This document shows, in pieces, positions 22,188 through 59,512 of a stretch of DNA of 64,000 nt. The stretch lies in the IMG/VR virus record IMGVR_UViG_3300042564_003728; one strand, written 5' to 3'. The DNA comes from a virus. The notes under the pieces are model-generated. The model worked only from the letters and a program-made list of their open reading frames with translations, searched no databases and was not told where the DNA came from. Numbering within the stretch: the first letter of the stretch is position 1; each line of letters begins with the position of its first letter. Both the position numbers and the translations under genes were made by a program.

Positions 22188-22240
22188 TATTATAGGTCCA
22201 CCTTACCAAAGTTTTGATAAAATGTACATGTTTATTTTTC
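22188..22240 (-). repeat. early promoter/RBS cassette copy A (PeSL-like)
   Basis: The minus strand reads AAATAAACATGTACATTTTATCAAAACTTTGGTAAGGTGGACCTATAAT-AAAGAAGGAAGCAAAC-ATG. It is near-identical to the copies at 22878 and 59421. Confidence 0.6.
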
Positions 22241-22398
22241 GATAAAATCAGAAACCATCTGAAAAAAGTCATCGGGCTTTTCGTCCTCGAGGACCATAAG
22301 ATAGTCACGAACATCTTCTGTGATGCCATGCTTGGCGAAATATGCGGCGATGGCTCGCTGAACGGTATCCATGCCGAAGTAGCCTATGACAGGACTAC

Positions 22399-22605
22399 TC
22401 ATACATCATCCTCCATTTGTTGAACCATGATTGCAATGATTTTTTCGAAGTCATCATCAGGATGCAACATATAATCTGCAGAGATATCACTGTACATCTC
22501 AGTGCAGGTGTTCATGGTTTCAACACCATGAGTTCCGCTGAGGGCTTCATAGATGAAATCGAAAGGATCATCTTGAGCGAGGATGTATTCATATAGCTTA
22601 GTCAT
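22399..22605 (-). CDS. hypothetical small protein
   Basis: Start taken at MTKLYEY, preceded by AAGGAAACA; a promoter-like motif lies about 50 nt upstream (22654-22670). Confidence 0.3.
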   Translation of the reverse strand: MTKLYEYILAQDDPFDFIYEALSGTHGVETMNTCTEMYSDISADYMLHPDDDFEKIIAIMVQQMEDDV

Positions 22606-22653
22606 TTTTGTTTCCTTCTTTATCATATATCCAGGATACCTTGTTTTCGAAAT

Positions 22654-22670
22654 ATTGTACATGTTTATTT
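22654..22670 (-). promoter_or_regulatory. promoter-like motif copy
   Basis: Minus strand AAATAAACATGTACAATATTTCGAAAAC. Confidence 0.3.
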
Positions 22671-22676
22671 CGAAAA

Positions 22677-22862
22677 TTAGAGGTGATTTTCGGTTTTGAA
22701 TTTATTGGCGGAATCGATGTCGACGAAAGTGATACAAATGGTTGGATTTCCGTTACGGGTAACGGTGGTGTATTGAATGTCGGTGATAGTGGTATAATAC
22801 GAAGCGAGAGTTTCGAAGATGTTGTGGTTGTAGTCGAAGTCGAAGGTAATGGTGTTAGTCAT
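22677..22862 (-). CDS. hypothetical small protein
   Basis: 61 aa; ATG positioned exactly as in the other cassette-driven genes (TATAAT, then 16 nt, then ATG; RBS AGAGGAA). Confidence 0.35.
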   Translation of the reverse strand: MTNTITFDFDYNHNIFETLASYYTTITDIQYTTVTRNGNPTICITFVDIDSANKFKTENHL

Positions 22863-22877
22863 GATTTTTTCCTCTTT

Positions 22878-22926
22878 GATTATAGGTCCACCTTACCAAA
22901 GTTTTGATAAAATGTACATGTTTATT
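22878..22926 (-). repeat. early promoter/RBS cassette copy B (PeSL-like)
   Basis: tgattataggtccaccttaccaaagttttgataaaatgtacatgtttatt is shared with copies A and C; a hairpin terminator follows immediately at the higher coordinate. Confidence 0.6.
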
Positions 22927-22934
22927 GTCAAAAA

Positions 22935-22958
22935 AAATGCGACCGAAGCCGCATTTTC
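22935..22958. terminator. hairpin terminator aaaatgcg-ACCGAAGC-cgcatttt
   Basis: Same ACCGAAGC loop as the 16940 terminator; flanked by A8 on one side and T4 on the other; lies between the exonuclease gene end and cassette B. Confidence 0.5.
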
Positions 22959-23648
22959 TTATCCGTACATTTGATGGTAAGATCGAACCAGATCGGTCGC
23001 TTTCTCAAGGTAGTTTTGAGGACGTTCCCTAAACACTTGTGCCTCGAGAGAATCATCGACACCAATGATGATAACGATATCCTTCACTAAGATGCCTGTC
23101 ATTTCCCATAGCATGTATGCATAGAGACTGGTCTGTAGGAAGTATCCTTCGATCCAGTCCTTTCGCTTCAGCTTCGCAGAAGTCTTATAGTCAATGATCG
23201 ACAGACGGCCGTCGTAGTCTGCTATGAGGTCGCATGAACCTGCTAGTTTCAGATGATCGGAGAAGAGCGTACATTCTGTGGCTCTGATCATGTCAACCTT
23301 GTCGTCAAGGATCATCTTGATCTGACGAAACATCATCATGTTATGAGGCATCGACGTATCGATGTCATGGCCTAACACATAGTTTTCACACATCGTATGG
23401 ATGTTAGTTCCACGAGTGGCAGCCCGAGATGAAACTCGAGCTGCTTCGTCCTCGCCTACTCTTTTCTTCCAAGCTTCAAGGGCAGATTTATCAGTCATCT
23501 TACCGAGGACGGCGGTGACAGACGGATATCTCTTTCCTTCTGGTGTCTCATAGAGACGTGTTGGACCATCTATCCTTTGCAGCTCCGCAAAGTCTAGCAG
23601 ATCGTATTCGAAACCTTTACGGTTGAAGTCCGAGTTTTTGACGAGCAA
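22959..23648 (-). CDS. PD-(D/E)xK family exonuclease (Cas4/RecB-like)
   Basis: 229 aa; YPSVTAVLG...W N-terminal motif and D-x(n)-IIDYKTS core typical of PDDEXK exonucleases. Confidence 0.45.
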   Translation of the reverse strand: MLVKNSDFNRKGFEYDLLDFAELQRIDGPTRLYETPEGKRYPSVTAVLGKMTDKSALEAWKKRVGEDEAARVSSRAATRGTNIHTMCENYVLGHDIDTSMPHNMMMFRQIKMILDDKVDMIRATECTLFSDHLKLAGSCDLIADYDGRLSIIDYKTSAKLKRKDWIEGYFLQTSLYAYMLWEMTGILVKDIVIIIGVDDSLEAQVFRERPQNYLEKATDLVRSYHQMYG

Positions 23649-24369
23649 TTATATATTCCTTCACTAATTTCGATCGAACGATATCCTGTTCGAGAAAGTC
23701 AACATGTACAAAATCATTCAACTTACCGAGGACCTTCATAAAGTCCTTGAGTCCGTTGCGTTCTTGGTCCTTCGTAAGATCTGACTGACGGAAGTCACCG
23801 CAGAACAATACTTTACAACCCTTACCAATACGAGTGATCACCGAGTCCAGTTCGTGGAACGTCATGTTATTGACTTCGTCCACAATGACAAAACAGTTGT
23901 TCATGGTAATACCACGAACGAACGACGTTGAGATAAACTCGATGGCGTTCTTCTGCTTGAGGATCTCGTATGCATCAGACCGATCAAACAATTCGGTGCA
24001 GATTGCATAGTAAGGTGCCTCATAGACCTTCATCTTTTCCTTCTGGTTTCCAGGAAGAAAACCCATATCTCGTGTTGGTACTACCGATCTTACAATATAA
24101 ATCTTATTTTGTACACCGGTATTTTCCATCATCGATTCAATGGCCTTATACAGAGCAATAAACGTTTTACCTGTACCAGCCATGCCGTGCAACATCAAAT
24201 GTTTTCCATCATCAAAAGCATCAAACGCAATGCGCTGGTTTTCTGTGAGTGGATTAATATTTTTTAAATTGAAATTTTGAGTTTTAAATGTCAACCCTTC
24301 TTGTGTGTCACCATTTTGTCTGGCGATTCTTTTTTCTCTCTTAGTTAAACGAGGTTGGCTATGTTGCAC
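23617..24369 (-). CDS. phoH: PhoH-like ATPase
   Basis: Walker A GMAGTGKTF; IVDEVNN Walker B; the full PhoH family pattern is present. Confidence 0.8.
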   Translation of the reverse strand: MQHSQPRLTKREKRIARQNGDTQEGLTFKTQNFNLKNINPLTENQRIAFDAFDDGKHLMLHGMAGTGKTFIALYKAIESMMENTGVQNKIYIVRSVVPTRDMGFLPGNQKEKMKVYEAPYYAICTELFDRSDAYEILKQKNAIEFISTSFVRGITMNNCFVIVDEVNNMTFHELDSVITRIGKGCKVLFCGDFRQSDLTKDQERNGLKDFMKVLGKLNDFVHVDFLEQDIVRSKLVKEYIIARQKLGLQP

Positions 24370-24378
24370 AAGTTGTCC

Positions 24379-24678
24379 TTATTTTTTATTACGAGCCTTA
24401 TTTACTGCCTCTCTGGTTTTGGTGCTTTTAATACCTTTATCAGCGTGTTGTTCACCGAGTGGCGAGTATGGGTTGGCATTACCGATTCTATTGAGTAGGT
24501 CGTTAAAGCCCGAGTCATTTTTGTGAGTTACGCCTGCTATTCCTGATACAAAATTAGGAGCGCCTATAATTTCTTCGATGTCTGGATTGGCCTCGAGAAA
24601 ATCAATTTTCTGTTGATAGTTAAAGAATTCCTCGAAAACTTCTCCGGTTTCTTTGAGTCTAAATTCGTATATAGGCAT
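24379..24678 (-). CDS. hypothetical protein
   Basis: 99 aa; MPIYEFRLKETGEV N-terminus, lacking the zinc-ribbon cysteines. Confidence 0.3.
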   Translation of the reverse strand: MPIYEFRLKETGEVFEEFFNYQQKIDFLEANPDIEEIIGAPNFVSGIAGVTHKNDSGFNDLLNRIGNANPYSPLGEQHADKGIKSTKTREAVNKARNKK

Positions 24679-24828
24679 TAATAATCTTCATCTTCTATCA
24701 GATCTAAAAGGGTGCTTTTTGCTTTAGAACGAAGGGCAGATCGAAGCCGCTTCTCACTCAAATGCTGACGATGATCATGTGATGTATTTTTCGAGTCGTC
24801 ATATTCTTCATTATATTTTCTAAAACGC

Positions 24829-25257
24829 TTAACCGTGTTGCTCATTTGGAATTAACCCTGGAAAAGCTTCGTTAATTGTTGCTGCGTTGAGTCCTTCGAC
24901 TTTCTTATCCTTGACTGCAATCAAAAGATTTGCATCCTTCGGATGAAGAGATTCGAGAAGACCGATGAAAAGCATTTCGCGCTGAACTTGTTTAATGTCA
25001 GGACGATTGCCGCTGAGGTAAAGAGGAAGTGTACGTGCCTCTTGATAGAGTCTTCCTTCGCTGTCGAGCACTTCGCTCGGCTTATAAGGAGGAGCTCCTT
25101 CTGGTAGCCACCATCCTACGTTAGGATGGAATGCCAATTCAAGGATATACCGAAGTGTTTCATTATCATACTGTCGTAAGACAGAAACCTTTGATGGTAC
25201 ATCTTTTGCTTCCTTGACCAAATCAAGGATCTCTGCTATCGCTAATGTTCTTTGCAT
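24829..25257 (-). CDS. hypothetical protein
   Basis: 142-aa ORF; no motif recognised. Confidence 0.3.
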   Translation of the reverse strand: MQRTLAIAEILDLVKEAKDVPSKVSVLRQYDNETLRYILELAFHPNVGWWLPEGAPPYKPSEVLDSEGRLYQEARTLPLYLSGNRPDIKQVQREMLFIGLLESLHPKDANLLIAVKDKKVEGLNAATINEAFPGLIPNEQHG

Positions 25258-25258
25258 A

Positions 25259-26110
25259 TTAAAACTCGTTAATGCTTTCTAATAGGAGTTTGAGACGACG
25301 TTCGATAAAGTAGTTGAAGAGTTTATCTCTTCCTTTACCAGCTTGCTGCTCGTACTGCACGAGCACTTCCTTCTTAATATCAGGAGGAATGAAGTTGAGA
25401 TCAACGAGCTGCTGATTGCGAAGGTAACCGCGCAGCATCTTCTCGTCACAGAATTCCTTTGGATCTGATACGAGCCACTGATCTAATTTTTTCTGACTAA
25501 TAGGTTTCTGTCTGGCACCGACAACGAACGTGTCATCTGCTGACAAGAAGTTAGGAACACCGTCGCCAGTATCACCGCGAATGATATGTTCTTTGATGAA
25601 CTTATCGACGTCGTTCGTCTTACGCCACTTCTTCTGTACAGGATCAAACTGCTGTACGTTCATGTAAGCTTGAAGCTGCACAAAGTCCTTGTCACCAGAA
25701 AGAATCAAGATCTTCTCGTTGGTATTGCCATAGGTTTGTGCAAGAGTGCCGATGATATCATCAGCTTCGGCGCCATCGACACGAATGACTCGATAAGGAA
25801 AGTAATCCTTGAGTTCATCGCGGACTTTATTGAGAGTCTCGAATACGGCAGTCCAGTTGATCTCGGACTTCTCACGATTCTTACGACGATTGGCTTTGTA
25901 ATAGGGAAATACTTGACGGCGCCAGTTATTACCAGCATCGCATGCGATAATCATCTCGCCGAACTCGTTCTTAAACTTGACATTATAAGCTCGAACAGAG
26001 TTTAGCACCATGTGTCGCAAAAGATCTTCTTCGATATCTGCATTCGTGTGGTTTCCAAGTTGTATCATTAGATTGGAAATCATAACCTGCGAAAGGTCCA
26101 TAATAATCAT
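25259..26110 (-). CDS. rnh: RNase H (FEN-family 5'-3' exonuclease)
   Basis: Collinear with T4 RNase H: LRHMVLNSV / VRHLILNSI; WRRQVFPYYKANRRKNRE / WRRDFAYYYKKNRGKARE; IRVDGAEADDIIGTL / MDIDKYEADDHIAVL; identical C-terminus SINEF. Confidence 0.85.
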   Translation of the reverse strand: MIIMDLSQVMISNLMIQLGNHTNADIEEDLLRHMVLNSVRAYNVKFKNEFGEMIIACDAGNNWRRQVFPYYKANRRKNREKSEINWTAVFETLNKVRDELKDYFPYRVIRVDGAEADDIIGTLAQTYGNTNEKILILSGDKDFVQLQAYMNVQQFDPVQKKWRKTNDVDKFIKEHIIRGDTGDGVPNFLSADDTFVVGARQKPISQKKLDQWLVSDPKEFCDEKMLRGYLRNQQLVDLNFIPPDIKKEVLVQYEQQAGKGRDKLFNYFIERRLKLLLESINEF

Positions 26111-26119
26111 TTCAATTTC

Positions 26120-26470
26120 TCACTCTTCATCTGGTAAAGTATACGTATATTCAATTGTACTGTCTTCATTATATCTAAATTCAAATATGTTGTCAGACAT
26201 ATTATGAAATGGATGCTCGAGATTATACTGTCTGTGCAACAATGCCTTGATGCCTTCCATGACTAAGGCTACATCTTTGATGTATTTATCGTCATTGATA
26301 TCTACGCCATAAGCTCCGAACATATTAATTATGTCAGGAATCATGTCATTCATGACTCCAGCCACGTGTTCTTTACGAGTCTGAGTAACCTTATCATGAA
26401 TTTCGTCTAAGTTCTGAGGCGGCGCCTCGTCGCGCTTGACACCTGGAAATAAGATTACGTTGTCCGTCAT
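26120..26470 (-). CDS. hypothetical protein
   Basis: 116 aa, acidic. Confidence 0.3.
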   Translation of the reverse strand: MTDNVILFPGVKRDEAPPQNLDEIHDKVTQTRKEHVAGVMNDMIPDIINMFGAYGVDINDDKYIKDVALVMEGIKALLHRQYNLEHPFHNMSDNIFEFRYNEDSTIEYTYTLPDEE

Positions 26471-27555
26471 TTAATAACCCTTAGTAGAATGGTGTCTTGA
26501 TTGATTCGGCCATTCGGCTTCGACTCTACGGTCTTGATCTCGTCCATAAACTTGCGTAGGCTGACTTTGCCTGCACCGAGCAATGCTTGAATAGAAACAT
26601 CTGGCTTTCGCAAGCTCTTGCTTGTAGAAGTTTCGACATCATAACCGATCAAGGTAGTGCCCTTCACTTGGATTCCAGCTGGACCACTCGAATCATATCG
26701 AGCCAACTTCTTGTATTTGGTGTTGTAAGCCCATAGCTGTGTACATCCTACGATCTCTGCTGGATGGACAGAGACAATCTTGAGTGAAGGCTCTTCCTTC
26801 TGGTATTTAAGGTTCTTGACCAGATCGACTGCAGACTTTGCTTTCTTCTCACGTGGCTTACGAACCTTGACAGCCTTCTTGTTATTTACATAACGATCGA
26901 TGTCATCGAAGAAACTCTGCCAAAAGTTAATCCAAAACTTCAGACGCTTGCCGAAGGCTTCTTGAACTTGCTCGTCATTCGACATAATCTCTGTATATTG
27001 AGGACGGTAGTAGTCAGCTACGATGCCGAGAATCTGTGCGTTCAATTCGTTCGCTTGACAAAAAGTGTACATCGAGAACTCTTTGCCATCGATGACATTA
27101 TCGAGTTCTTCTTCGAGACTCGTAATGATGTAGTTGGCCTTCTCACGAATGCGAGCTTGAATATCGACGACAGGCTTTGGCGCATCTTCGACTTCTTCGA
27201 CAATCTGAGTGGCTGCCGCAAGCAGATTCTTTACACTATCATTGAAATAGTCGAGATTCTTTTGCGGCAGCTCATTGCCATTCAGGAGAATACGTGCAAC
27301 GTTACCAAGAGTTTTGGAAATCTTCCACTTTGGAAGCTTGCGTAGGAGTGCGAGTTGGTCCTTGGTATAATTCTTCTTGGCATATGTGAAGAACCAGTCG
27401 CGTGACTGATCATCAGATGCCATGTAGTTATACCAATTCAGAGCATTGCTATAGCCATCGATTACGATGGGTTCTGAGCCATAGGCTTTGTCATCGATCG
27501 ACCGAATAGCCGCACGAGAGATCTGTTTGGGTTTAGCTTTAACCTTAATGACCAT
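26467..27555 (-). CDS. hypothetical protein (362 aa)
   Basis: Long ORF with a promoter-like motif 55 nt upstream; no motif recognised. Confidence 0.3.
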   Translation of the reverse strand: MVIKVKAKPKQISRAAIRSIDDKAYGSEPIVIDGYSNALNWYNYMASDDQSRDWFFTYAKKNYTKDQLALLRKLPKWKISKTLGNVARILLNGNELPQKNLDYFNDSVKNLLAAATQIVEEVEDAPKPVVDIQARIREKANYIITSLEEELDNVIDGKEFSMYTFCQANELNAQILGIVADYYRPQYTEIMSNDEQVQEAFGKRLKFWINFWQSFFDDIDRYVNNKKAVKVRKPREKKAKSAVDLVKNLKYQKEEPSLKIVSVHPAEIVGCTQLWAYNTKYKKLARYDSSGPAGIQVKGTTLIGYDVETSTSKSLRKPDVSIQALLGAGKVSLRKFMDEIKTVESKPNGRINQDTILLRVIK

Positions 27556-27609
27556 GTTTACCTCTGTAGTTCCTTGTTTGTATTATTCAATCTACTACAG
27601 TTTTGATAA

Positions 27610-27627
27610 TTTGTACATGTTTATTTT
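27610..27627 (-). promoter_or_regulatory. promoter-like motif copy
   Basis: Minus strand AAAATAAACATGTACAAATTATCAAAACTGTAG. Confidence 0.3.
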
Positions 27628-28382
27628 CATAGGTCGATTTTATAATTAAAACTTGGACCACCCTTTGGCGTGTACTGCTCTGCGTTTGGCTCCCAACCAG
27701 GAGTTCCAACGACCGGTTCCCACTTTTTGTCGATATGTTCCTTCTTGACATATGACCACTTACGAGAAGTTTCCATTGCCGTTTCCATACCATACTCGAG
27801 CAATTGATTGTGCACAGCATCGTGTTCGTACATCTCTACGTCATCGAAGACGAAGACTGCGCCAGGATCTGATCGTTCAAGGAAAAACGCAATCTCGGTA
27901 TCAAGCGCTTCGAGCGTATGAGGACCATCGAAGTGAACTACGCTGTACTTATTGACAAGACTCTTATGCTCTGCATAGACAGGAACACCGTCTGCATAAC
28001 GATTGAAGAACTCTGTGTCTTCGAGGTTGAACATGTAGAAATTCACATTCTTCTGACGACAATACAGATACATGTTGATCATGCACACGTCGCGCATCTC
28101 ATTCGTATAGTCACAGCGACCTTCTTTGAAGATCTCGTCACGATAATATTCGATGTTGCCATACGGATCAATACCAAAGACTGGCTTCTCAGGAGTCTGA
28201 CCGCTTTCTACGAGACCGTCGATGATACGTTGTAGACCACCACCGAGACGGACACCGATCTCGACTGCCGCACCTTCTACACCTTTTGATCGAATGGCTG
28301 CGTCAGTGAGTACTTCATAGTTTCCACTGTCTGTGCCGAATTGTGCTTGGATCTGATGGATCGATACTGGTTGTTGTGACAT
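27627..28382 (-). CDS. class I SAM-dependent methyltransferase
   Basis: Motif I VEIGVRLGGG; first gene of the sugar-modification operon. Confidence 0.45.
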   Translation of the reverse strand: MSQQPVSIHQIQAQFGTDSGNYEVLTDAAIRSKGVEGAAVEIGVRLGGGLQRIIDGLVESGQTPEKPVFGIDPYGNIEYYRDEIFKEGRCDYTNEMRDVCMINMYLYCRQKNVNFYMFNLEDTEFFNRYADGVPVYAEHKSLVNKYSVVHFDGPHTLEALDTEIAFFLERSDPGAVFVFDDVEMYEHDAVHNQLLEYGMETAMETSRKWSYVKKEHIDKKWEPVVGTPGWEPNAEQYTPKGGPSFNYKIDL

Positions 28383-32350: not shown

Positions 32351-32351
32351 C

Positions 32352-38795: not shown

Positions 38796-39066
38796 ATCCG
38801 TTTCCTATTAGGTTGAAGATGTTAGGATCAAAGTACAATGCACCTTGAGCGCCATCGCCACATTCTCTCGAAACTACCTTCACGTAATCATCAAAGAAAT
38901 CGACACCTCGAAGTTGAATAATCAACATCACGGCAGTTTGCACCATGTTGGCATTATAAACTACCCACGTAAGCTTTTGCTCTGGAAGAGACAGAATAGA
39001 CTCAACGGTCTTTTCTCCAAATTGCGAAATGCAATTTTGCTGTAGGTCCGGAGTAATTACATTCAT
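38788..39066 (-). CDS. hypothetical protein
   Basis: 92 aa. Confidence 0.25.
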   Translation of the reverse strand: MNVITPDLQQNCISQFGEKTVESILSLPEQKLTWVVYNANMVQTAVMLIIQLRGVDFFDDYVKVVSRECGDGAQGALYFDPNIFNLIGNGYD

Positions 39067-40021
39067 CTAAAACACCCTTAATATATTCTGACGTGTAGCC
39101 GGCTAAAATCATATCATTGACATCTTTATGTTGGATGTCTGAAGGCCATATGACTACACGATATCCAGCATCAATCGCCTTCTGCATTCTTTTGATTGTA
39201 TCTGAATGCCTTGGCTCATTATCAAATACTACCACAATTTTCTCTTTAAGTAAACCGGTTTGTTCGACTTGTGCAGCAAGATCTCCACCTGCCGCTGCCA
39301 TTGCATTCGGCAAGAACATCGAATCGATCGGTCCCTCTAGTAAATATATATCTTTATCCTCATCGATAGTATCCATGCCAAATACTTTTGGTTTCGAATC
39401 ATCCAGCATGATGGTGATATATCGGACACCGTCTTTCTTGAACGACCTGCCTTGAAAACCAAAGAGATTCTTTTCCTTATCAAGGAATGGTATGATCAGA
39501 CGTGGTTCGTCTTTCTCACCGATCTTGATCTTGTCAGGTATCATAGTATTGACCCACGCGCCAAATTTTGGAGCATAGAATAGCTTGTAGTGAAGATGCG
39601 GAGGGATCTGCCGACTATCCACATACTTCTTGACAGGATGACCCGGATCGAGCTGACTTACCTTCTTTATCTTCGACAGAGCGGTGGTCTTGACAAAGAC
39701 TGGAGGTTTCATCTTCTCTGCAAAAGTCTCGACATCTTTCTGATTACCAGATTCTTTCATCTGTTCCTTGATGTATTCAAGGTAGAGTGTTGGATCGATC
39801 TCTTTCATGAAATATCTGAACTGCATACTCGCAGAACAGTTATGACAATAAAAACGAACCTTGCCGCCCTTCTCGATCAAGTGCCCACGAGTCTTTCGAC
39901 GGTCCTTTTGAGAGTCGCCGCAGATAGGGCAACGGAACCGATAGACGGTGTTGTTCACTCGCTGAAATCTCTCGAGACGACCTGAGAGAAGGCTGATGTA
40001 TTTGTGTTCTATCCAAAGCAT
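39002..40021 (-). CDS. 61: DNA primase gp61
   Basis: Zn-ribbon FRCPICGDS...FYCHNCSAS and core blocks EPRLIIPF, FGFQGRS, YITI, YLLEGPIDS, DNEPRHSDTIKRMQKAIDAG and KDVNDMI align with T4 gp61 throughout. Confidence 0.8.
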   Translation of the reverse strand: MLWIEHKYISLLSGRLERFQRVNNTVYRFRCPICGDSQKDRRKTRGHLIEKGGKVRFYCHNCSASMQFRYFMKEIDPTLYLEYIKEQMKESGNQKDVETFAEKMKPPVFVKTTALSKIKKVSQLDPGHPVKKYVDSRQIPPHLHYKLFYAPKFGAWVNTMIPDKIKIGEKDEPRLIIPFLDKEKNLFGFQGRSFKKDGVRYITIMLDDSKPKVFGMDTIDEDKDIYLLEGPIDSMFLPNAMAAAGGDLAAQVEQTGLLKEKIVVVFDNEPRHSDTIKRMQKAIDAGYRVVIWPSDIQHKDVNDMILAGYTSEYIKGVLDECNYSGPTAKLHFAIWRKDR

Positions 40022-40064
40022 AATAACTCCAATCTGTTAACTTCATTATACACAGTTTGTGATT

Positions 40065-40080
40065 ATTGTACATGTTTATT
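40065..40080 (-). promoter_or_regulatory. promoter-like motif copy upstream of gp61
   Basis: The minus strand reads TAAATAAACATGTACAATAATCACAAACTGTG-TATAAT-GAAGTTAACAGATTGGAGTTATT-ATG. The TGTACA hexamer, a 17-nt spacer and a TATAAT form a sigma70-like promoter. Confidence 0.45.
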
Positions 40081-40622
40081 TAGAACAAAGAGCCTTTAAG
40101 ATTAAAATTAATCGCTAATCTTCTTTCGACATCTAATGGAAGATTAGTACTGTGCCTATTATCAATATGATCTCCGCCTTCGAAGAATAGTAATCGATTC
40201 TCGATATGCTCGACTTCTGATCCATCTTCAAATAGTGTTGGAGCAGTATTACAAGTATTGATATAAAACAGAGCTACGTAATGCTTATACGGGCAATCAT
40301 TGTGCCAACCATGGGCACGCTTACGGCCTTGATTCATCATGCTATTGACGTTTACGCTGATGACATGTTCTGTATTGAAATTAAGTTTTTCTTCAAAGAA
40401 ATAGAACATCGGTCTGATCGTTTGCCAATACCCGAATGCATCTTCGATGTGTTCATTTTCTGTATAGATTCTCTTCATGAAGTACCAGTCTTTTTCAGTC
40501 TGGCCGTTGTATCCTTCAGGAAGTATCGATGAGAAGTTCCAACGAAAGGCTGGATGTTCGATCATCTGTTTTATTTCATTAAAATAACTTCTTGGCAAGA
40601 AGTCATCAATCACGCGTCTCAT
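40080..40622 (-). CDS. possible 2OG-Fe(II) oxygenase superfamily protein
   Basis: HGWHNDC (HxD) plus a downstream GGDHIDNRH; weak. Confidence 0.3.
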   Translation of the reverse strand: MRRVIDDFLPRSYFNEIKQMIEHPAFRWNFSSILPEGYNGQTEKDWYFMKRIYTENEHIEDAFGYWQTIRPMFYFFEEKLNFNTEHVISVNVNSMMNQGRKRAHGWHNDCPYKHYVALFYINTCNTAPTLFEDGSEVEHIENRLLFFEGGDHIDNRHSTNLPLDVERRLAINFNLKGSLF

Positions 40623-49568: not shown

Positions 49569-49587
49569 ACAAGGAAACTTTAACGGA

Positions 49588-50199: not shown

Positions 50200-51365
50200 T
50201 GAGCTTTAACCTTATTGAAATTGGCAGCCGAGAATTCAGCACGATCTACGATCTTAGTAGGACGGTTATGTCTAACTACTACGAATCCTTCAGGCTTCGA
50301 CTTCTTGCCATTGATACTATGATCAAACTCGGCACTACTCGAAAGAGTCTTAGCCAACACATCCTTTGCTTTTTGCAGGTGCTTATGCTGGTTCAGAACG
50401 TTTTCGAAGTGAGCACGATTACGTTGAATGTGACCGATATCTGCTTCCATCGCAGCAGTCTTAGCTGCCTTCGATGCTGCCATCTTCACACCTTCAATCT
50501 TCTTCTGATGTGCCTTCATGTAGTGGTTCATGAAACCTTCTACGTTAGGCTTCGTACCAGTACGAACGGTATGATTGATGTAAGTCTTCAGAGGAAGTTC
50601 GTGACCTTTGATGGACTCATAGGTTTCAGGCTTTGCTTTTTTGTTATGGGCTGCAGCCGCAGTCATAGCCTTTGCAAAGCTTTCGCGATTCTGAGGAGTG
50701 TACTTAATGTTATCGAGATGATGTTCCGTTGAAATCAGATGCACGTCTTTGTGCAATCCAAAGTCATTCAGCTGAGCACCATGCTCGGCTTGCATATCCT
50801 CGAGGTTCTTACCATTATACTTAGTATGAATGGCTACACCAATCTTCGAGTTAAGAGCAGCCTTACCATGTGCCGAATTTTTTGGAGCAGAGTAAGTGAT
50901 GGTGTTAGGTGTAAAGTGTACACGACCATCAGACTCATGCACATCATCAGAAGTATGCATGATATCTCCTTGGAAAACACCTTTCTTTGGTGTCACCTTT
51001 GGCAGATGTTGTAATGCAGCTCGCAGCTTCGACACGAGGCCAGGAGCATGTCCATGGTTACGCTCAATATCTTCTGGAGTATAATTGATCTTTGGATTCT
51101 TATTGAAGGCAGACTTCGATGCTACGAAGAATCGACCAGTTTGAGGATGACGACCGAATACCACAGAAGGAGAACCATCATACTTCATGGTGATTCTTGT
51201 ATCGTTCTTCTTGCCTGTCAGTCTGTCATGCACATCTTTGAGATTGTGATAGGCATGAGAAAAGCCTTCATGCCCAGCATTAATCACGTGATCTTCGGCA
51301 TGCTCAAGATGCTTCAGCTTAGTTTCGTCAAGCTCTTCTGCAAGGAAATTTCTAAAACTTGTCAT
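50196..51365 (-). CDS. ATP-dependent polynucleotide (RNA/DNA) ligase-family protein
   Basis: Motif I ITMKYDGSPSVVF (KxDG) and motif IV-like PEGFVVVRHN; the N-terminus MTSFRNFLAEE is capsid-targeting-sequence-like. Confidence 0.4.
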   Translation of the reverse strand: MTSFRNFLAEELDETKLKHLEHAEDHVINAGHEGFSHAYHNLKDVHDRLTGKKNDTRITMKYDGSPSVVFGRHPQTGRFFVASKSAFNKNPKINYTPEDIERNHGHAPGLVSKLRAALQHLPKVTPKKGVFQGDIMHTSDDVHESDGRVHFTPNTITYSAPKNSAHGKAALNSKIGVAIHTKYNGKNLEDMQAEHGAQLNDFGLHKDVHLISTEHHLDNIKYTPQNRESFAKAMTAAAAHNKKAKPETYESIKGHELPLKTYINHTVRTGTKPNVEGFMNHYMKAHQKKIEGVKMAASKAAKTAAMEADIGHIQRNRAHFENVLNQHKHLQKAKDVLAKTLSSSAEFDHSINGKKSKPEGFVVVRHNRPTKIVDRAEFSAANFNKVKAQ

Positions 51366-51967
51366 CGTACTGTTTTTACCGATCCATCAGGATTTACAAA
51401 GAAGGCTTCGAACGTAATATCAGGAAACTCTTTCTTCAATGAAAGAAATGCCTGAAGATTGCTAGGAGCATCATCAAACAACCGAAGCTTTACGTAGTTC
51501 TTAGTATTTATATACTTTCGAAAGATGATCTTCTTGGCTTCAGCCGAAGAGTCGATCTTCAAGTTACCAGCTCGTTCGACATGGATATTATCGATAGGTA
51601 GACCATGATCTCTGAACGTCTGAAGGAAGATATCCTTGTTATCGAAGTCAGCTCGCGCTGTACAGATAATCACTCGACTATGAGGATTCTTTTTCGAGTT
51701 AGCAAAGATAGCTTTTGTTTTTGCAACCATACGAGTGATTGGCTTGGATGACCTACGAAATACCTCGGCGTTTGCAAACTCTCCGAAGTCGTAGGTTTCA
51801 CCCTTCTTACGTTTGTAAGTGTTGAACTCTTGGTTGTCTAGCATTCTGACAAGGTTGCCGTCTTTTACAACGGCAACCTTTGCATACGTGTGAAACAATG
51901 TCTCATCAATATCGAATATCGTGAGGGTACCAGTACCAACAAACTCTTTAAATCTTTTCTTTATCAT
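51362..51967 (-). CDS. HAD-family phosphatase (polynucleotide 3'-phosphatase-like)
   Basis: IFDIDETLF DxDxT motif, ICTAR and FDD blocks comparable with the T4 Pnk phosphatase domain; a promoter-like motif lies 30 nt upstream. Confidence 0.45.
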   Translation of the reverse strand: MIKKRFKEFVGTGTLTIFDIDETLFHTYAKVAVVKDGNLVRMLDNQEFNTYKRKKGETYDFGEFANAEVFRRSSKPITRMVAKTKAIFANSKKNPHSRVIICTARADFDNKDIFLQTFRDHGLPIDNIHVERAGNLKIDSSAEAKKIIFRKYINTKNYVKLRLFDDAPSNLQAFLSLKKEFPDITFEAFFVNPDGSVKTVR

Positions 51968-51993
51968 AGTTTACTCTACAATAGTTTCGATAA

Positions 51994-52010
51994 AATGTAC
52001 ATGTTTATTT
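51994..52010 (-). promoter_or_regulatory. promoter-like motif copy
   Basis: Minus strand AAAATAAACATGTACATTTTATCGAAACTATTG-TAGAGT. Confidence 0.3.
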
Positions 52011-52727
52011 TTATAATTTTACGTTTGGTTTGAGCACACCGCTCGTCAAACGATCGAGCATGATATCGCTCTTCTTAACCTTCTTGATGGCCATAACCTT
52101 ACCAATATCTCGAGTAGAGTTTTTGATAAAGATGATCTGGTGGTTCTTGAAGTAGTTGTCATATGCACGCTGTGCAAAGTCTTCTTCGATACGCTTCAGC
52201 TCGTTAGGATATTTCCTACGAATGGCATCGAGAGCTGACTTGTTGACACCTTCACCACTAGCACCAACTTTCTTTTTCAGATCTAATAGATCCTTTACGA
52301 TATCACTCAGATTGAATGTACCGCCGAGTTTAAAGTTTGTAGCATAGCCATTGGCAGTAACATCGACAGCCTTCACTTCGAATTCTCCGTTACTCGCTAT
52401 TACGTCAACGCCGGCGGACGACCCACCACCGAGATGAGCCGAGTTGACTAGAAAGTAAAGAGTGACTTCACCAGGACCTACGCCCTTGAGATTGTAGTTG
52501 TGCATCTTCGACAGCATTACCGGATCTTCGCTGCGAAGCTTGTCAATCAGTCTATTGATCTTATTCATATCGATCGAATCAATCGTATCCTTTAGATCAA
52601 ACTTGGGGAAGAAATGCATATTAAAGATATGCTGAATTTCTTTTTTGAAACGTGTGTCTTTAAAATCTGATGAAGACAGATTGAATGACGTAACGTGCAA
52701 AGCCCGTTTGATAAAGTTTTTATCCAT
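52011..52727 (-). CDS. hypothetical protein with PD-(D/E)xK-like motif
   Basis: GVDVIASNGEFEVKAV fits D-x(n)-E-x-K; 238 aa. Confidence 0.3.
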   Translation of the reverse strand: MDKNFIKRALHVTSFNLSSSDFKDTRFKKEIQHIFNMHFFPKFDLKDTIDSIDMNKINRLIDKLRSEDPVMLSKMHNYNLKGVGPGEVTLYFLVNSAHLGGGSSAGVDVIASNGEFEVKAVDVTANGYATNFKLGGTFNLSDIVKDLLDLKKKVGASGEGVNKSALDAIRRKYPNELKRIEEDFAQRAYDNYFKNHQIIFIKNSTRDIGKVMAIKKVKKSDIMLDRLTSGVLKPNVKL

Positions 52728-52809
52728 AATTTATTCCTTATTCCTTTGTTTATTTATCAACAAGCAAAATTATCTTTGCTCGTATTGTCACGCTACAACG
52801 AAATGCAAT

Positions 52810-52826
52810 AATTGTACATGCTAAAA
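52810..52826 (-). promoter_or_regulatory. promoter-like motif variant (TTTAGCATGTACAATT)
   Basis: GCTTA-type variant of the motif, as at 19996 and 57219. Confidence 0.25.
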
Positions 52827-52885
52827 ACAAAAAAAATCGCTCCGAGTATCTCTACTGGAGCGATTTGTTAGAAATATTTATGGTG

Positions 52886-53449: not shown

Positions 53450-53555
53450 ATTTCCTTATCGTTTAACATTTCATCGCGTTCCTCTGGAGTAATCTTATTG
53501 GTAAGGATACCATACACTGTAACTCCAATAATGAACACTATAAAAACGAAAAGAT

Positions 53556-54235: not shown

Positions 54236-54608
54236 TATTTTCTACCTCATAACGAATATTTGTGCCTTTCCAGACTTTGATACCAAGCCCATCGTATTCC
54301 CAGTCACGTAGATCAGGATCAAGTTCTTTCATATCTGGTTTCGGAGTATCATAGACCACTTCGTGCACATACTTAAACTTTTGTTCGTCTGACCATTCAC
54401 GAAGATAATCATTGTCCTCGTCAAATACACGAAGATACTCTGCATCATCGATTACGCGAGCAGAAGTGACTAACTCGTCGATATGCATCTGAGAAAACTC
54501 TTCCGCCTCATTCATCGTGACTGTGTCTTTTGCATGTTCAGCACTCTCACAATCGACAACATATCGAATCCGATGCATCGAGATTGTTTCTACAAGATAC
54601 TTAGGCAT
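54222..54608 (-). CDS. hypothetical acidic protein
   Basis: 128 aa. Confidence 0.2.
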   Translation of the reverse strand: MPKYLVETISMHRIRYVVDCESAEHAKDTVTMNEAEEFSQMHIDELVTSARVIDDAEYLRVFDEDNDYLREWSDEQKFKYVHEVVYDTPKPDMKELDPDLRDWEYDGLGIKVWKGTNIRYEVENNGTE

Positions 54609-54906
54609 CGTCTTTCAATCCCATTTCTATCAACTGATCAGGAGTTGAGTACCATTTTAGCACAATCTCAAGCGCGTCGATATGTTTTTGGATCTCTATA
54701 TCATCAGCTTCCTGATCATCCCATACAAAGATGTGATGATTTGCTCCAAGATCTCGACGCAAAGTATCCCATGTATCACGAAGTTGGTCAACAACAATCT
54801 TATCAGCCATTTCATAAGTTAAATCAATCGTATACTTACTCATTTCACTTTTCCTTTTCAACAATAATTGAACAACATTTACCACCAAACCCAAACGAGT
54901 TGACAA
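54601..54906 (-). CDS. hypothetical protein
   Basis: 101-codon ORF; the likely start is the internal MSKYTIDL. Confidence 0.2.
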   Translation of the reverse strand: MSTRLGLVVNVVQLLLKRKSEMSKYTIDLTYEMADKIVVDQLRDTWDTLRRDLGANHHIFVWDDQEADDIEIQKHIDALEIVLKWYSTPDQLIEMGLKDDA

Positions 54907-55954: not shown

Positions 55955-56346
55955 TCTACAACTTTCTTATAACGATTAATTGTTCCATCGGCTTCTTCGA
56001 CCATAATCTCATCCATACGAGGATTATGAGCTAGAATTCTTTGTTCATGATCTGCAATGATCTTACCGGCTTCACGAAGAGTACGCATCACAGCATTAGC
56101 AATTCCAAACTTATTGCGGCCGGTATTTCGCGCTTCTTCAACCGCATCAGCACTGTCGCGATACAACTCATCGGACAACGACCAAGATAAGTCGACAGCA
56201 TTAGCAAAATCTCCTACGCGCCGAAGATATTCTTGTCCTCCGTCGACAGAAATAGCTCCACATGTGCAAGTTACAAAGTCATGACGATGCTTTGAGACGA
56301 TAAGGTCTCCACATGACAAGCAATTTACTGCATTTTGAACAATCAT
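55951..56346 (-). CDS. hypothetical Cys-cluster protein
   Basis: CLSCGD...CTCG zinc-binding-like N-terminus; 131 aa. Confidence 0.3.
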   Translation of the reverse strand: MIVQNAVNCLSCGDLIVSKHRHDFVTCTCGAISVDGGQEYLRRVGDFANAVDLSWSLSDELYRDSADAVEEARNTGRNKFGIANAVMRTLREAGKIIADHEQRILAHNPRMDEIMVEEADGTINRYKKVVE

Positions 56347-56576
56347 TCTGCTATCACCTTTTCGTGCACTTGTGTAATGTGCTTACACTTATTATAGAAA
56401 TTAAAACCAGGACAGTCACACACCCAACCTTGATCGAGCATCGTGACGTGATACTGTTTGCCTTTACAGTTTATATATGGCCATGTCAGACCGACCAAAT
56501 GGTGGTCGTGAAAATTGATGCCAGCCATTGCAAGCGGTGTACGAAAGGCGGAATAAGTTGGCGTATGGTCAATCAT
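56343..56576 (-). CDS. SWIM zinc-finger mini-protein
   Basis: CDCPGFNFYNKCKH matches the SWIM pattern CxCx(n)CxH. Confidence 0.45.
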   Translation of the reverse strand: MIDHTPTYSAFRTPLAMAGINFHDHHLVGLTWPYINCKGKQYHVTMLDQGWVCDCPGFNFYNKCKHITQVHEKVIAE

Positions 56577-56756
56577 AGGTTCACCTTACTACAAAAAACT
56601 AATTTTGTAAACCCCCTAAAGCGAGGAGAATTAAAATAACAAAAAGAAAACCATAGAGGGCAAATCGGAAAAAAATCTTGGCGACCTTAAGTCCGATCCA
56701 AAGAAAGAGGCCTAAGATCGCCAAGAACGGCAACGATGAGAGGAGGAACACGATGC

Positions 56757-57176
56757 TCAACCGCGTCTCTTACCAGTTGCCGGATCGGCCGCTTCAGACT
56801 TGGAAAGGACAACAAGTCCGCCTTTGTTATAGGCTTGGCCGATGATATAATTGCCGCTGACGGCAAGCTTTTCTTTCTCGTAAGAGGAATTCTTTGCGTA
56901 GTGTACACCGATCTCGTTCTGAGATGGGTACTTTTTACGATGATCTGATACGTTGTAATCAGGCATCGGTGTGCCACGAAGCTTAGGCTTATAGTTGCCA
57001 GCACGGTACTGCTGATATTCTTCGAACGTCTTTGGCTTAACACCAATACGCTTGCAAAACTTACAGTCTTCGAGCCAAGCCAAACCAATTTTGGTATACT
57101 TGGACGTCGTCATTTTAGACTTACGCTTGCCATGATGAGTGGTAGTGTAAGCAGGACCAAGAAGATGCATTGTCAT
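56757..57176 (-). CDS. hypothetical basic protein
   Basis: 139 aa; a promoter-like motif lies 45 nt upstream (57219-57234). Confidence 0.3.
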   Translation of the reverse strand: MTMHLLGPAYTTTHHGKRKSKMTTSKYTKIGLAWLEDCKFCKRIGVKPKTFEEYQQYRAGNYKPKLRGTPMPDYNVSDHRKKYPSQNEIGVHYAKNSSYEKEKLAVSGNYIIGQAYNKGGLVVLSKSEAADPATGKRRG

Positions 57177-57218
57177 AATATAATTTCCTCCTGATTCTGG
57201 TATACACTACCACCGATT

Positions 57219-57234
57219 AATTGTACATGCTTAC
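57219..57234 (-). promoter_or_regulatory. promoter-like motif variant (GTAAGCATGTACAATT)
   Basis: GCTTA-type variant. Confidence 0.25.
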
Positions 57235-58028
57235 TTTACGTTGACGATACCCTTAAAGTCGTAAGGAACGATAATGGTAGAAACCTTACCTTCCTTCACG
57301 GCTTCGGCGATCGTCACGAGAGCAGTTGCTTCCATGTACTTTGTTGCACCAGCATTGGCGTTCAGAGCGGCAATACGTTCTGCTTCCAACTTTGCGGTGC
57401 GAACCTCTACCTGCTTCTGCTTCTCGGCGTTCTGTGCCTGAACCAACTGGTTGGCTGAGGCTACGATGTTCGCAGCAGGCTTTACCTGACGAACAAGAAC
57501 CTGAGAGATTGAAATTGCACCGTCAAGCTTCTCAGAAGCAAGCTGCGTAACGATTTCCTGGCGAACAAGCTGTTCGATCTCTGCACGGTTATCAGCCATT
57601 TTCAAGGACTCGTACTTGCGTGCAACCTTATAGGCAGCATTACGACCGAGCTGACGAATGTAGTTGTACATTAGAAGGGTGTCACCTTCTTCGGTATCAG
57701 CGTGGAAGCCACGGTTCTTTTCGATGTAGAGTTCTGCAACAGAACCAGGATTGATCGAGTAGATGACAGCCATATCGAAGTCGGCAACTGTCGAGTTATC
57801 AGAAGCGAGTGGAGTCAAGTCAGAGACATCAACCTGAACATCCTTTGTAGGGAATGTCATGACATCACCGAACATTGTCTGATTGATAGAACCAGGCATC
57901 AACTCAGTTGTTTCAATGGTCTTGTCGAACGAGCGACGAACACCAACTTCACCAGTTTCAATACGAGTACATGCAGCAGTCGTGGCCATCAGACCAGCGA
58001 GAACGGCAATCTTTGCAATACGATTCAT
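57231..58028 (-). CDS. SPFH/band-7 (prohibitin-like) lipoprotein
   Basis: Signal plus lipobox LMATTAAC; SPFH core through residue 200; Ala/Gln-rich coiled-coil tail. Confidence 0.65.
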   Translation of the reverse strand: MNRIAKIAVLAGLMATTAACTRIETGEVGVRRSFDKTIETTELMPGSINQTMFGDVMTFPTKDVQVDVSDLTPLASDNSTVADFDMAVIYSINPGSVAELYIEKNRGFHADTEEGDTLLMYNYIRQLGRNAAYKVARKYESLKMADNRAEIEQLVRQEIVTQLASEKLDGAISISQVLVRQVKPAANIVASANQLVQAQNAEKQKQVEVRTAKLEAERIAALNANAGATKYMEATALVTIAEAVKEGKVSTIIVPYDFKGIVNVK

Positions 58029-58042
58029 AATTTACTTTTCCT

Positions 58043-58219
58043 TTAGAACAAAATAACAATAGACGCAACAAATAACATTACTAGAACGGTGACTCCAAAA
58101 GAATAACCGGCCACGGCCAACATTTTTATCTTTTCTTTTCCGGTCAGCCGACGGAAAATATCAATGCTTGTAAAAAAGATGACAAACAATGACAAGAAAG
58201 CAATAATCATTTTACTCAT
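58043..58219 (-). CDS. small 2-TM membrane protein (58 aa), missed by the ORF track
   Basis: MSKMIIAFLSLFVIFFTSIDIFRRLTGKEKIKMLAVAGYSFGVTVLVMLFVASIVILF; ATG overlaps the phosphoesterase stop (TAATG) and the gene ends 15 nt before the SPFH ATG. Confidence 0.4.
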   Translation of the reverse strand: MSKMIIAFLSLFVIFFTSIDIFRRLTGKEKIKMLAVAGYSFGVTVLVMLFVASIVILF

Positions 58220-58860
58220 TAATTAGGTCCACTTCCATTTCCCCATGCTTTTACAGGACCTTTATATCCTGTATCTTTCCAACGTTGTTGGATTCTTTCT
58301 TCTACCTCATCGAAGTGAAGAGGAGTGAAGTCGGTTTGCTCTACGCATACGCAGAGATATCGAGGATCTGGGAAGTCAGCATATATGATTTCGTTTCTAT
58401 CAGCATTAACTCCCCATGGCATTTTGATCTCATTTGCATGTAGATGACCGTGTACGTTGACACGGAACCTTTCAGACACGCAGTCAGGATGTAGCGGGAT
58501 ATGGCTCAGAATGAACTTATCGACAAACACACGAACACCGTGAATCTGCTCAAAGCCAACTTCACGATAGTCTTCGTCCTTGAAGATGTCGTGGTTACCG
58601 CGCACAAGGATCTTACGGCCATTCATACGCTTTACCAATTCAAGATACTTCTTGTTGATTACCACGTCGCCAAGAAAGTAGACAGTGTCTTGCTCTTTCA
58701 CTTTAGCATTGTGCCGCTCGATCATGGTCTCGTTCATCTCTTCAGTCGAAGTGAACGGCCGCAGCGGACTGCCGTCAGATAGCGTGAACTTTTCCCACGA
58801 GTTCGTATGACCAAGATGATGGTCAGAGATAACGAATCTGTTTACAAACTTAGTCATCAT
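58219..58860 (-). CDS. calcineurin-like metallophosphoesterase
   Basis: Motifs ISDHHLGH, GDVV, GNHD, GHLH; 213 aa. Confidence 0.65.
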   Translation of the reverse strand: MMTKFVNRFVISDHHLGHTNSWEKFTLSDGSPLRPFTSTEEMNETMIERHNAKVKEQDTVYFLGDVVINKKYLELVKRMNGRKILVRGNHDIFKDEDYREVGFEQIHGVRVFVDKFILSHIPLHPDCVSERFRVNVHGHLHANEIKMPWGVNADRNEIIYADFPDPRYLCVCVEQTDFTPLHFDEVEERIQQRWKDTGYKGPVKAWGNGSGPN

Positions 58861-59110
58861 CCATTCTTTCGAGGTATATTCGAGTTGCTTCTACGCTGAG
58901 AGACAATACAGCGGTTGCATTGATACGACAAGCGATATTCACGACAATCCATTTGGCAATGTATGCAGTGATACGATCTTTGCGAGATAACGTGTTATTC
59001 ACATTTCCACCATACGTTCGTATGCAGCGCGATCGGCTTGCTCATCGAGCCAAGCTTCGTAACCTTCCCAGAATTCTTGTTCTTCAGCAGACATCATCAT
59101 ATCCTTCTTC

Positions 59111-59160
59111 ATTATAGATCCACCTTACCAAAAATTGTATTAATTGTACATGTTTATTTT
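59111..59160 (-). repeat. early promoter/RBS cassette, diverged copy D
   Basis: The minus strand reads AAAATAAACATGTACAATTAATACAATTTTTGGTAAGGTGGATCTATAATGAAGAAGGAT-ATGATGATG, driving a 33-aa ORF (MMMSAEEQEFWEGYEAWLDEQADRAAYERMVEM). Confidence 0.5.
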
Positions 59161-59405
59161 TAGTTGTAATTATCAATCACAGGAGATAGGCGAGACATAA
59201 GTCTAACGAATTTTAGACGAGGTTTTTTGTTAAGGACGATATCGTCGACGGTCGCGGCGACGAAGTAGTTTTTGTAAAGAGCGATTGAATATTCGAGTGT
59301 CGGGTTTTGATTGATAAAATCGACGAGAAGTTGAATGGTGGGGAATTTAGGCGAAGAGGTGTCGAGGTTGTTGTTAAGACGATCGAAATATTGAATGGAG
59401 TACAT
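59160..59405 (-). CDS. hypothetical protein
   Basis: Start MYSIQYF placed 17 nt after the TATAAT of cassette copy C (RBS AGAAGGAAAAA). Confidence 0.3.
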   Translation of the reverse strand: MYSIQYFDRLNNNLDTSSPKFPTIQLLVDFINQNPTLEYSIALYKNYFVAATVDDIVLNKKPRLKFVRLMSRLSPVIDNYN

Positions 59406-59420
59406 GTGTTTTTTTCCTTC

Positions 59421-59470
59421 TTGATTATAGGTCCACCTTACCAAAGTTTTGATAAAATGTACATGTTTAT
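59421..59470 (-). repeat. early promoter/RBS cassette copy C (PeSL-like)
   Basis: tgattataggtccaccttaccaaagttttgataaaatgtacatgtttatt, identical over about 48 nt to copy B; a hairpin follows at 59491-59512. Confidence 0.6.
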
Positions 59471-59490
59471 TTCGAAAAAAGGACAAAAAA

Positions 59491-59512
59491 ATGGGCGACC
59501 CGAAAGCCGCCC
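59491..59512. terminator. hairpin terminator tgggcg-ACCCGAAAGC-cgccca
   Basis: GC stem with an ACC-GAAAGC loop related to the 16940 and 22935 hairpins; A7 run on the plus-strand 5' side. Confidence 0.45.

Follow-up and report, generated by a model that had tools for sequence, protein, structure and literature searches.

The closest described counterparts of the element reported here are the promoter-early stem-loop cassettes (PeSLs) of T4-type phages, known from RB49 and phi1 (Arbiol et al., 2010, PMC2839356) and from the pairs T4/PST and KVP40/nt-1 (Comeau et al., 2014, PMC4122927). In a PeSL, an A/T-rich region with the upstream stop codon is combined with two sigma-70-like boxes spaced 17 nucleotides (nt) apart, a stem-loop, a Shine-Dalgarno sequence (SD) and an ATG. 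PeSLs concentrate in hyperplastic regions, beside ORFans by which close relatives differ, and their crossovers fall between the -10 box and the SD (PMC2839356, PMC4122927). Here we analyze a stretch of 64,000 nt of viral DNA (IMG/VR record IMGVR_UViG_3300042564_003728, hereafter the window), which carries four copies, A to D, of a comparable intergenic cassette. We consider it likely that these copies are sigma-70-type promoters of a T4-like phage, and that crossovers in or between them shuffle genes in the manner of PeSLs. It is from the sequence that we infer promoter activity, the transcription start, early timing and a causal role of the cassettes in rearrangement. The cassettes, promoters and terminators described below all lie on the minus strand.

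The repeat is best described by a 49-mer, AAATAAACATGTACATTTTATCAAAACTTTGGTAAGGTGGACCTATAAT, which is exact in copies A (22189-22237) and C (59424-59472), carries one mismatch in copy B (22879-22927) and has diverged in copy D (59111-59159), where 42 of 49 positions agree (seven mismatches). The minus-strand 21-mer TTGGTAAGGTGGACCTATAAT is found without mismatch at 22189-22209, 22879-22899 and 59424-59444 and with a single mismatch at 59111-59131, and was not obtained once in 100 shuffles. The original prediction had placed three near-identical copies and one diverged copy on the minus strand at these positions, and there they are. When aligned together with their flanks, the copies are alike from AATAAAC through the SD AAGAAGGAA, and the flanks on either side are unrelated. 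All 17 spacer positions and the start region are identical in A, B and C, which lie at two loci 37 kb apart and have unrelated genes behind them.

Cassette A (22173-22237 including the leader) begins with an UP-like AAATAAA that contains the TAA stop of the upstream open reading frame (ORF), followed by the -35 hexamer TGTACA (22223-22228), a 17-nt spacer, the -10 hexamer TAAGGT (22200-22205), a TATAAT (22189-22194) and the SD AAGAAGGAAG; the ATG at 22172 then opens an ORF of 47 amino acids (aa; 22029-22172, minus). Cassette B (the 49-mer plus leader, 22863-22927) stands before a 61-aa ORF (22677-22862, minus; ATG 22862), and cassette C (the exact 49-mer plus an 18-nt leader, 59406-59472) before an 81-aa ORF (59160-59405, minus; ATG 59405). 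In cassette D (59101-59159) the spacer differs (ATTAATACAATTTTTGG) and the 3' half is kept (TAAGGTGGATCTATAAT); behind it come ATGATGATG of an ORF of 31-33 aa (58999-59100, minus) and then a metallophosphoesterase gene. In all four copies an SD, either AAGAAGGAA or AAAGAGGAA, lies 6-9 nt 5' of the ATG. The distance between TATAAT and ATG, predicted to be 16-17 nt, is indeed 16 nt in A and B, but reaches 18 nt in C and is 10-16 nt in D, which has ATGATGATG. As had been supposed, the small ORFs behind the copies are unrelated to each other: they fall into different BLAST clusters, and a search of the PHROG families left those behind A, B and C without a family and gave a borderline match (E 0.009) for the fourth.

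The order of an UP-like AAATAAA, a -35 TGTACA, a spacer of 16-17 nt, a -10 TAnnnT and an A/T-rich start region would correspond to that of a promoter. Host RNA polymerase would start about 7 nt past TAAGGT, and in the transcript some 20 nt of leader, including the SD AAGAAGGA, would precede the ATG of the small gene, so that each small ORF would be equipped with its own transcription and translation signals. A strong terminator would insulate the conserved unit that ends just upstream (a nuclease gene, or a non-coding segment after the gene labelled g3). Because 49-65 nt are common to them, the cassettes may serve the phage's recombination machinery as homology patches; a crossover in or between cassettes would delete, insert, duplicate or replace the intervening genes, and chimeric cassettes would result.

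Copies A-D are the closest-alike members of a larger family of predicted promoters, with at least 12 members in the window; the four copies of the original prediction are real, but only part of it. When up to two mismatches to the consensus AAATAAACATGTACA are allowed, there are 11 minus-strand matches versus 0.19 expected, all of them at gene starts or intergenic, and a weaker twelfth relative lies at around 52813-52820. All 11 matches have TA at -12/-11 after a spacer of 16-17 nt. The plan common to the family is AAATAAA, TGTACA, 16-17 nt and TAnnnT (or TAnnnA/C), with the -10 hexamers TAAGGT, TAGAAT, TAGATT, TAGAGT, TATAAT, TATCCT, TATACC and TATATA. Its members precede genes of a minus-strand block that extends from 19 to 60 kb, and none was found in the structural-gene part of the window.

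An indication that genes are exchanged around the cassettes comes from related contigs. The exact 49-mer occurs in 33 IMG/VR contigs and the family pattern in more than 113. The first 33 related loci were chosen by an exact match to the 49-mer, whose invariance among them is by construction; a comparison of nucleotide diversity between cassette and flanks as evidence of conservation was discarded on account of this selection and of ungapped flanks inflated by indels. Six of the 12 window copies lie within two variable regions, together about 3 kb long. Region 1 extends from a PD-(D/E)XK nuclease gene (22959-23648) to a DUF932 gene and shows at least six gene-order haplotypes; region 2, after the helicase gene and g3, shows at least five. 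A family promoter stands before nearly every variable ORF, and several haplotypes were found again in 2-7 different samples. Pairwise blastn placed the junctions. In contig L001 the 61-aa ORF is absent exactly between cassette B and another family member, E (22656), the homology segments overlapping by 80 nt on the cassette, and the left part of B runs into the leader of E. Behind cassette A, the 47-aa ORF is likewise found swapped for an unrelated ORF between cassette A and the promoter of the DUF932 gene. In region 2, four contigs (L008, L011, L025, L033) carry four extra ORFs, three with their own promoters, after a 49-mer, and their homology to the window stops 9-25 nt from cassette D.

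The original prediction would have had to give way to simple duplication if the copies always stood beside the same genes. This is not the case: 57 copies of the 49-mer (up to two mismatches) precede seven unrelated ORF clusters, five of which are also found behind other members of the family, and behind each of several upstream contexts stand 3-6 different ORFs. The cassettes themselves are mosaics, spacer type S1 being combined with the 3' halves T1, T2, T5 and T6, and 3' half T1 with the spacers S1, S2, S3 and S6, which indicates exchange inside the cassette. The crossover points are spread and fall in mid-cassette, at the boundary of spacer and -10, and between TATAAT and SD. Breakpoints of homology lie within 40 nt of a cassette in 41% of 409 cases, versus 7.7% for random positions (maximum 12.7% in 500 trials). 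With a cassette that joins different genes in different relatives, homology breakpoints in or next to cassettes, and insertions, deletions and replacements whose ends lie inside cassettes or at most some 25 nt away, the PeSL-like reading of the original prediction is supported.

Several points weigh against this reading. As many as 23% of gene starts also lie within 40 nt of a cassette, so that the excess of breakpoints is only about 1.8-fold, and since promoters are near-universal before the variable small ORFs, gene-level indels would come to lie beside promoters whatever the mechanism. The breakpoint count includes noise, since plain divergence can also end a BLAST segment, and the related loci are metagenome contigs that may be mis-joined at repeats. 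Copies A and D have no adjacent upstream stem-loop, D has no stem-loop of any kind, and a hairpin internal to the 49-mer shows no covariation beyond its own sequence lineage. The modest excess of breakpoints also suits ordinary strong promoters that are alike through recent local duplication and selection for strength and play no causal part in rearrangement; some right-hand breakpoints do fall at gene starts that are free of a cassette, such as the g46/g6 junction in L008. We nevertheless regard this explanation as distinctly unlikely, because the identity of A-C spans the spacer and the start region, which are weakly constrained in sigma-70 promoters, despite unrelated genes and a distance of 37 kb. 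Moreover, homology that overlaps across deletion junctions, chimeric cassettes at these junctions and the mosaic combinations of spacers and 3' halves all point to exchange within the repeats. That the shuffling is an artefact of assembly, with strains or loci joined at a repeat of 49-65 nt, seems very improbable. Many contigs do end at or near a cassette (L033, L017, L012, L007), as repeats do in assembly graphs, but one region-2 haplotype was recovered in four samples (L008, L011, L025, L033) and one region-1 haplotype in seven (L005, L010, L012, L016, L018, L027, L032), and such recurrence in independent samples argues against chimeras. Furthermore, the flanks are syntenic, region 1 is never joined to region 2, the variable ORFs exist regardless of any join, and copies are present at two loci within the window itself. 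We give hardly any credence to a strict mobile element, similar to a miniature inverted-repeat transposable element or an integron attC site and moved by a dedicated transposase or site-specific recombinase. The -35 region of the 49-mer is an 8-bp palindrome (ATGTACAT), and the PD-(D/E)XK nuclease gene borders variable region 1; yet neither terminal inverted repeats nor target-site duplications were seen in an alignment of five copies with their flanks, no integrase or transposase is present among the annotated genes, and the crossovers are spread over the cassette, as in homology-driven exchange, and not as expected from cutting at one site.

A second question is which hexamer serves as the -10. 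In copies A-D, 17 nt separate TAAGGT from TGTACA, TGG stands before TAAGGT, and TATAAT follows 5 nt further downstream. The choice of TATAAT as -10 in the original prediction probably has to be revised, as the family-wide element is TGTACA-N17-TAnnnT and a start from TATAAT would fall within or after the SD. The working -10 of copies A-D is most likely TAAGGT, which would put TATAAT at about -1 to +5. The hexamer profile behind this assignment was built from 64 non-redundant family members (the window and 124 loci), and the search pattern for this extended set fixed only the T, A and T of the hexamer at the 17-nt position. The profile repeats the plan TGTACA-N16/17-TAnnnT, and the hexamer matches TATAAT in at least five of six positions in 23 of the 64 members. 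Sub-family T2 has the 5' half of the 49-mer, continues with TAGTAT-GAATAATAAGCTAAGGAG and lacks TATAAT. In two gene families the start codon lies 5-6 nt past the first -10, including the window gene 51362-51967, where the second hexamer holds the ATG. For a permuted transfer-messenger RNA (tmRNA), the Rfam model starts at 19966, 3-4 nt past the start predicted from the first -10. Against this assignment, a scan with the E. coli consensus misses A-D (TGTACA matches at 4/6 positions, TAAGGT at 3/6, and TCAAAA-17-TATAAT would match at 9/12); such a generic scan of the window also gave no enrichment over shuffles (45 versus 38.5 ± 6.4) and is thus not informative for this phage. Part of the G-TAnnnT conservation in the extended set, moreover, is forced by the search pattern and filter.

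Alternatively, the -10 in use could be TATAAT. Its -35 would then be the weak hexamer TCAAAA, 17 nt before it, and AAATAAACATGTACA, at about -55 to -41, would serve as an activator site or UP element; or both -10s could be used as tandem promoters. TATAAT is a perfect -10, versus three of six positions in TAAGGT; a second -10-like hexamer 11-12 nt past the first is present in 35 of the 64 members without being imposed by the search; and at the 22656 copy a simple scan picks the equivalent pair TCGAAA-17-TATGAT. We still consider this unlikely. The SD core begins 0-6 nt after the second hexamer in 28 of the 35 members that have one, so that a transcript starting about 7 nt past that hexamer would begin within or beyond the SD and lack it. 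Sub-families without the second hexamer retain TGTACA-17-TAnnnT, in probably leaderless genes the start codon itself lies within the second hexamer, and a tmRNA started from the second hexamer would lose the 5' strand of the first helix of the model. Nor do members with the second hexamer have a better potential -35 partner for it than members without (3.03 versus 2.90 of six positions). With TAAGGT as the -10, the second hexamer would recall phage lambda PR', where a -10-like element at the equivalent position makes sigma-70 pause the polymerase near the promoter. It is conceivable, if quite doubtful, that the cassette is more than a promoter and has a built-in sigma-dependent pause or attenuation, or two starts, and that its palindromic -35, ATGTACAT, is perhaps the target of a recombination-promoting phage protein. 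If so, a cassette with pausing, attenuation or two starts would set the early expression of accessory genes.

The remaining members of the family follow the same plan. Member E (22606-22670) has a spacer of type S2, the 3' half TATCCTGGATATATGAT and an SD, and leads to the ATG (22605) of an ORF labelled g0; in relatives this ORF stands behind full 49-mers or chimeric cassettes instead of member E. In region 1 of some relatives (L006, L028), the g0 ORF (22399-22605 in the window) is present as 2-3 tandem paralogues, which is consistent with unequal exchange. The member before the DUF932 gene (start 21959) extends over 21960-22029 and reads TGTACA-17-TAGAAT with TGG upstream; here an 8-bp inverted repeat, CCATTCTA-TGG-TAGAATGG (21992-22010, minus), overlaps the -10. 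This repeat is retained in relatives, mostly with changes in the loop, and has the layout drawn for many PeSLs of phi1 and RB49. Another member (19967-20013, TGTACA-17-TATATA) would drive the two-piece tmRNA gene, whose Rfam model begins at the next nucleotide. The members at 27556-27626 (TGTACA-17-TAGATT) and 40022-40081 (TGTACA-16-TATAAT) precede a 362-aa gene (26467-27555) and a 339-aa gene (39002-40021), the latter with a weak Toprim-like Pfam match below the curated cut-off. The PNK/HAD-like gene (51362-51967) has its member at 51968-52010 (TGTACA-17-TAGAGT). Its ATG lies 5 nt past the -10 TAGAGT, and there is no SD between them (51962-51978, minus), so its mRNA is probably leaderless. 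The same layout is seen in a second gene family of the related loci. Before a 139-aa gene (56757-57176), the member at 57177-57236 carries AAGTAAGCATGTACA, the -10 TATACC and the SD AGGAGG, and forms the right-hand border of variable region 2. The weaker member (52728-52826) stands before the gene 52011-52727 and has CATGTACA at around 52813-52820, the -10 TAGCGT and a leader of about 70 nt.

The upstream genes often end in these promoters. The stop codons at 22232-22234 and 57231-57233 are contained in the AAATAAA block, those at 40080-40082 and 22029-22031 share its first bases, and those at 27627-27629 and 52011-52013 are directly adjacent to it. Mechanical ORF calls start within the promoter in two cases (22399-22662, from the ATG of ACATGTACA, and 21012-22001, from an ATG in the spacer), and a third call, 59160-59486, begins at a TTG farther upstream. 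The starts preceded by an SD are 22605, 21959 and 59405 and give proteins of 68, 315 and 81 aa, lengths that agree with the relatives.

A different motif is found beside the structural genes. The T4 late motif TATAAATA occurs 10 times in the window versus 2.7 expected, adjoining structural genes, at 3019-3026 (minus), 9232-9239 (minus), 9236-9243 (plus), 59630-59637 (minus) and six further sites. Several copies just upstream of structural genes suggest that this phage uses gp55-type late transcription. The TATAAT of the cassettes was considered as a T4-type late promoter, which has TATAAATA at -10 and lacks a -35 box, and rejected, as the cassettes read CTATAATNAAG.

The hairpins predicted upstream of copies B and C are real and have the features of strong intrinsic terminators, with UUCG loops and U-tracts. 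The one before B (22929-22958) follows the PD-(D/E)XK nuclease gene and has a stem formed by AAAAUGCGGC and GUCGCAUUUU; its hairpin (22933-22958) has a predicted energy of -15.5 kcal/mol (z -3.8), a UUCG loop and U8, and in the relative L026 the stem variant GCGGCTTAAGCCGC keeps the complementarity. The terminator before C (59483-59515) has an 11-pair stem, a UUCG loop and U7 (hairpin 59490-59515, -19.1 kcal/mol). A third copy of the hairpin core, GGGCGGCTTCGGTCGCCC with T7, lies at 16940-16962, where the minus-strand gene block ends, and has no promoter behind it. All three share the core GCGGC-UUCG-GUCGC with the same G.U wobble, flanking pairs lengthening the stem at 16940 and 59483 and an identical 14-mer being present at 16945 and 22939; by their sequence, these predicted terminators are a small family of their own, independent of the promoters. 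The order of terminator, then promoter, is thus present at B and C as predicted, but not as a shared unit. The hairpin before B stays behind the nuclease gene, whatever cassette variant or gene comes next; the hairpin before C closes a non-coding segment, conserved and about 140 nt long (59490-59632), and not a protein gene; and homologues of the 81-aa ORF in L052 and L067 have a family promoter in front without the hairpin. Since the hairpins segregate with the upstream units and the core also occurs at 16945-16958 without a promoter, the repeated, exchangeable unit is the promoter with its leader.

Copies A, B and C can also fold into an internal 11-pair hairpin with three G.U pairs that overlaps the -10. 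It is 90% paired within its own sequence lineage and 47% in the other members, versus 36-48% in shifted controls; as a family-wide structure between -35 and -10 it is not supported, pairing outside this one lineage being no better than in these controls. The non-coding segment upstream of C, which lies between the stop of g3 and cassette C (59490-59632, minus), has a promoter-like site of its own (TGTACA-16-TATACA) and is a candidate for a small RNA some 105 nt long. When the segment was searched against Rfam, only noise was returned (14-21 bits versus gathering scores of 37-111), and RNAalifold gave no covariation, the segment being nearly invariant in 11 relatives.

Based on its gene content, the phage is a T4-type myovirus of what appears to be a new lineage. 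The window encodes a gp6-like wedge, a gp5-like hub, a tail tube, NrdA and a gp41-like helicase, the helicase being about 60% identical to its counterparts in T4-like phages. The best isolate match is a baseplate wedge protein with 37% identity, no relative came up when 21000-24000 was compared by megablast with 50,697 phage records, and the cassette was not found in the same number of phage records by blastn with word size 11. An exact scan for the 43-nt core in 185,579 bacterial and archaeal genomes gave no match and thus no clue to the host. Two-piece tmRNAs are known in aquatic T4-like phages, namely Melnitz and the pelagimyophages (PMC9004378). Directly behind the family promoter at 19967-20013, the window carries such a permuted tmRNA of the alphaproteobacterial type (19654-19966, minus), which scores 89 bits with Rfam RF04321 and 54 bits with RF01849 and for which ARAGORN gives the tag ANDNDSFADIRLAA. 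Its type suggests that the phage infects alphaproteobacteria or that the tmRNA gene originated in them; the host is probably alphaproteobacterial.

How far the cassettes resemble other known systems can now be considered. Early promoters of T4 are strong, are read by the host sigma-70 polymerase and have A-rich UP elements. The cassettes share with them the upstream A-rich block, a non-canonical -35 similar to TTTACA, the 17-nt spacer, and many close copies before small non-essential genes in one direction of transcription; they belong, however, to another sequence family, and an identity of 49 nt between copies exceeds what a promoter needs. Morons of lambdoid phages are autonomous units of promoter, gene and terminator that are thought to be inserted by illegitimate recombination. 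They are likewise small accessory genes with their own expression signals between conserved genes, but do not share flanking sequence, whereas here the conserved cassette is the junction. Arrays of small ORFs that depend on a promoter and are exchanged at repeated sites are also reminiscent of integron cassettes, yet no integrase was seen among the annotated genes and there is no attC structure here, a promoter is present in every cassette, and the crossovers are spread out.

The likeness to PeSLs is the closest. Each is an intergenic repeat in which an A/T-rich block holding the upstream stop codon is followed by two sigma-70-like boxes at a distance of 17 nt, then by an SD and an ATG. Both are enriched in variable regions beside small ORFs of unknown function, and both border indels and replacements between close relatives. 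The junctions found here fall in the stretch from the -10 region to the SD, where those of PeSL mini-circles are also reported to lie, the terminator hairpins upstream of B and C are similar to those of the PST and nt-1 type, and the -35 TGTACA agrees in five of six positions with the TTTACA of T4/PST PeSLs (TTTACW). The cassettes differ in belonging to another phage lineage, with the consensus AAATAAACATGTACA; only two of the four copies have an adjacent terminator, and the hairpins go with the upstream unit and are not a constant part of the cassette. In addition, many of the cassettes here have another -10-like hexamer one helical turn past the first. The shuffling of cassettes is thus already known from the PeSLs of T4-type phages, and what is new is the lineage and the consensus. 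For the group of this phage, AAATAAACATGTACA-N17-TAnnnT would provide a promoter model for annotation, which corrects several gene starts called inside the promoter. The comparison also makes the process visible in a natural population, not in a pair of isolates: dozens of independent contigs carry the same cassette with different genes and chimeric junctions. PeSL-type cassettes would thereby be extended from three cultured groups of gammaproteobacterial T4-type phages to an uncultivated lineage with an alphaproteobacterial-type tmRNA.

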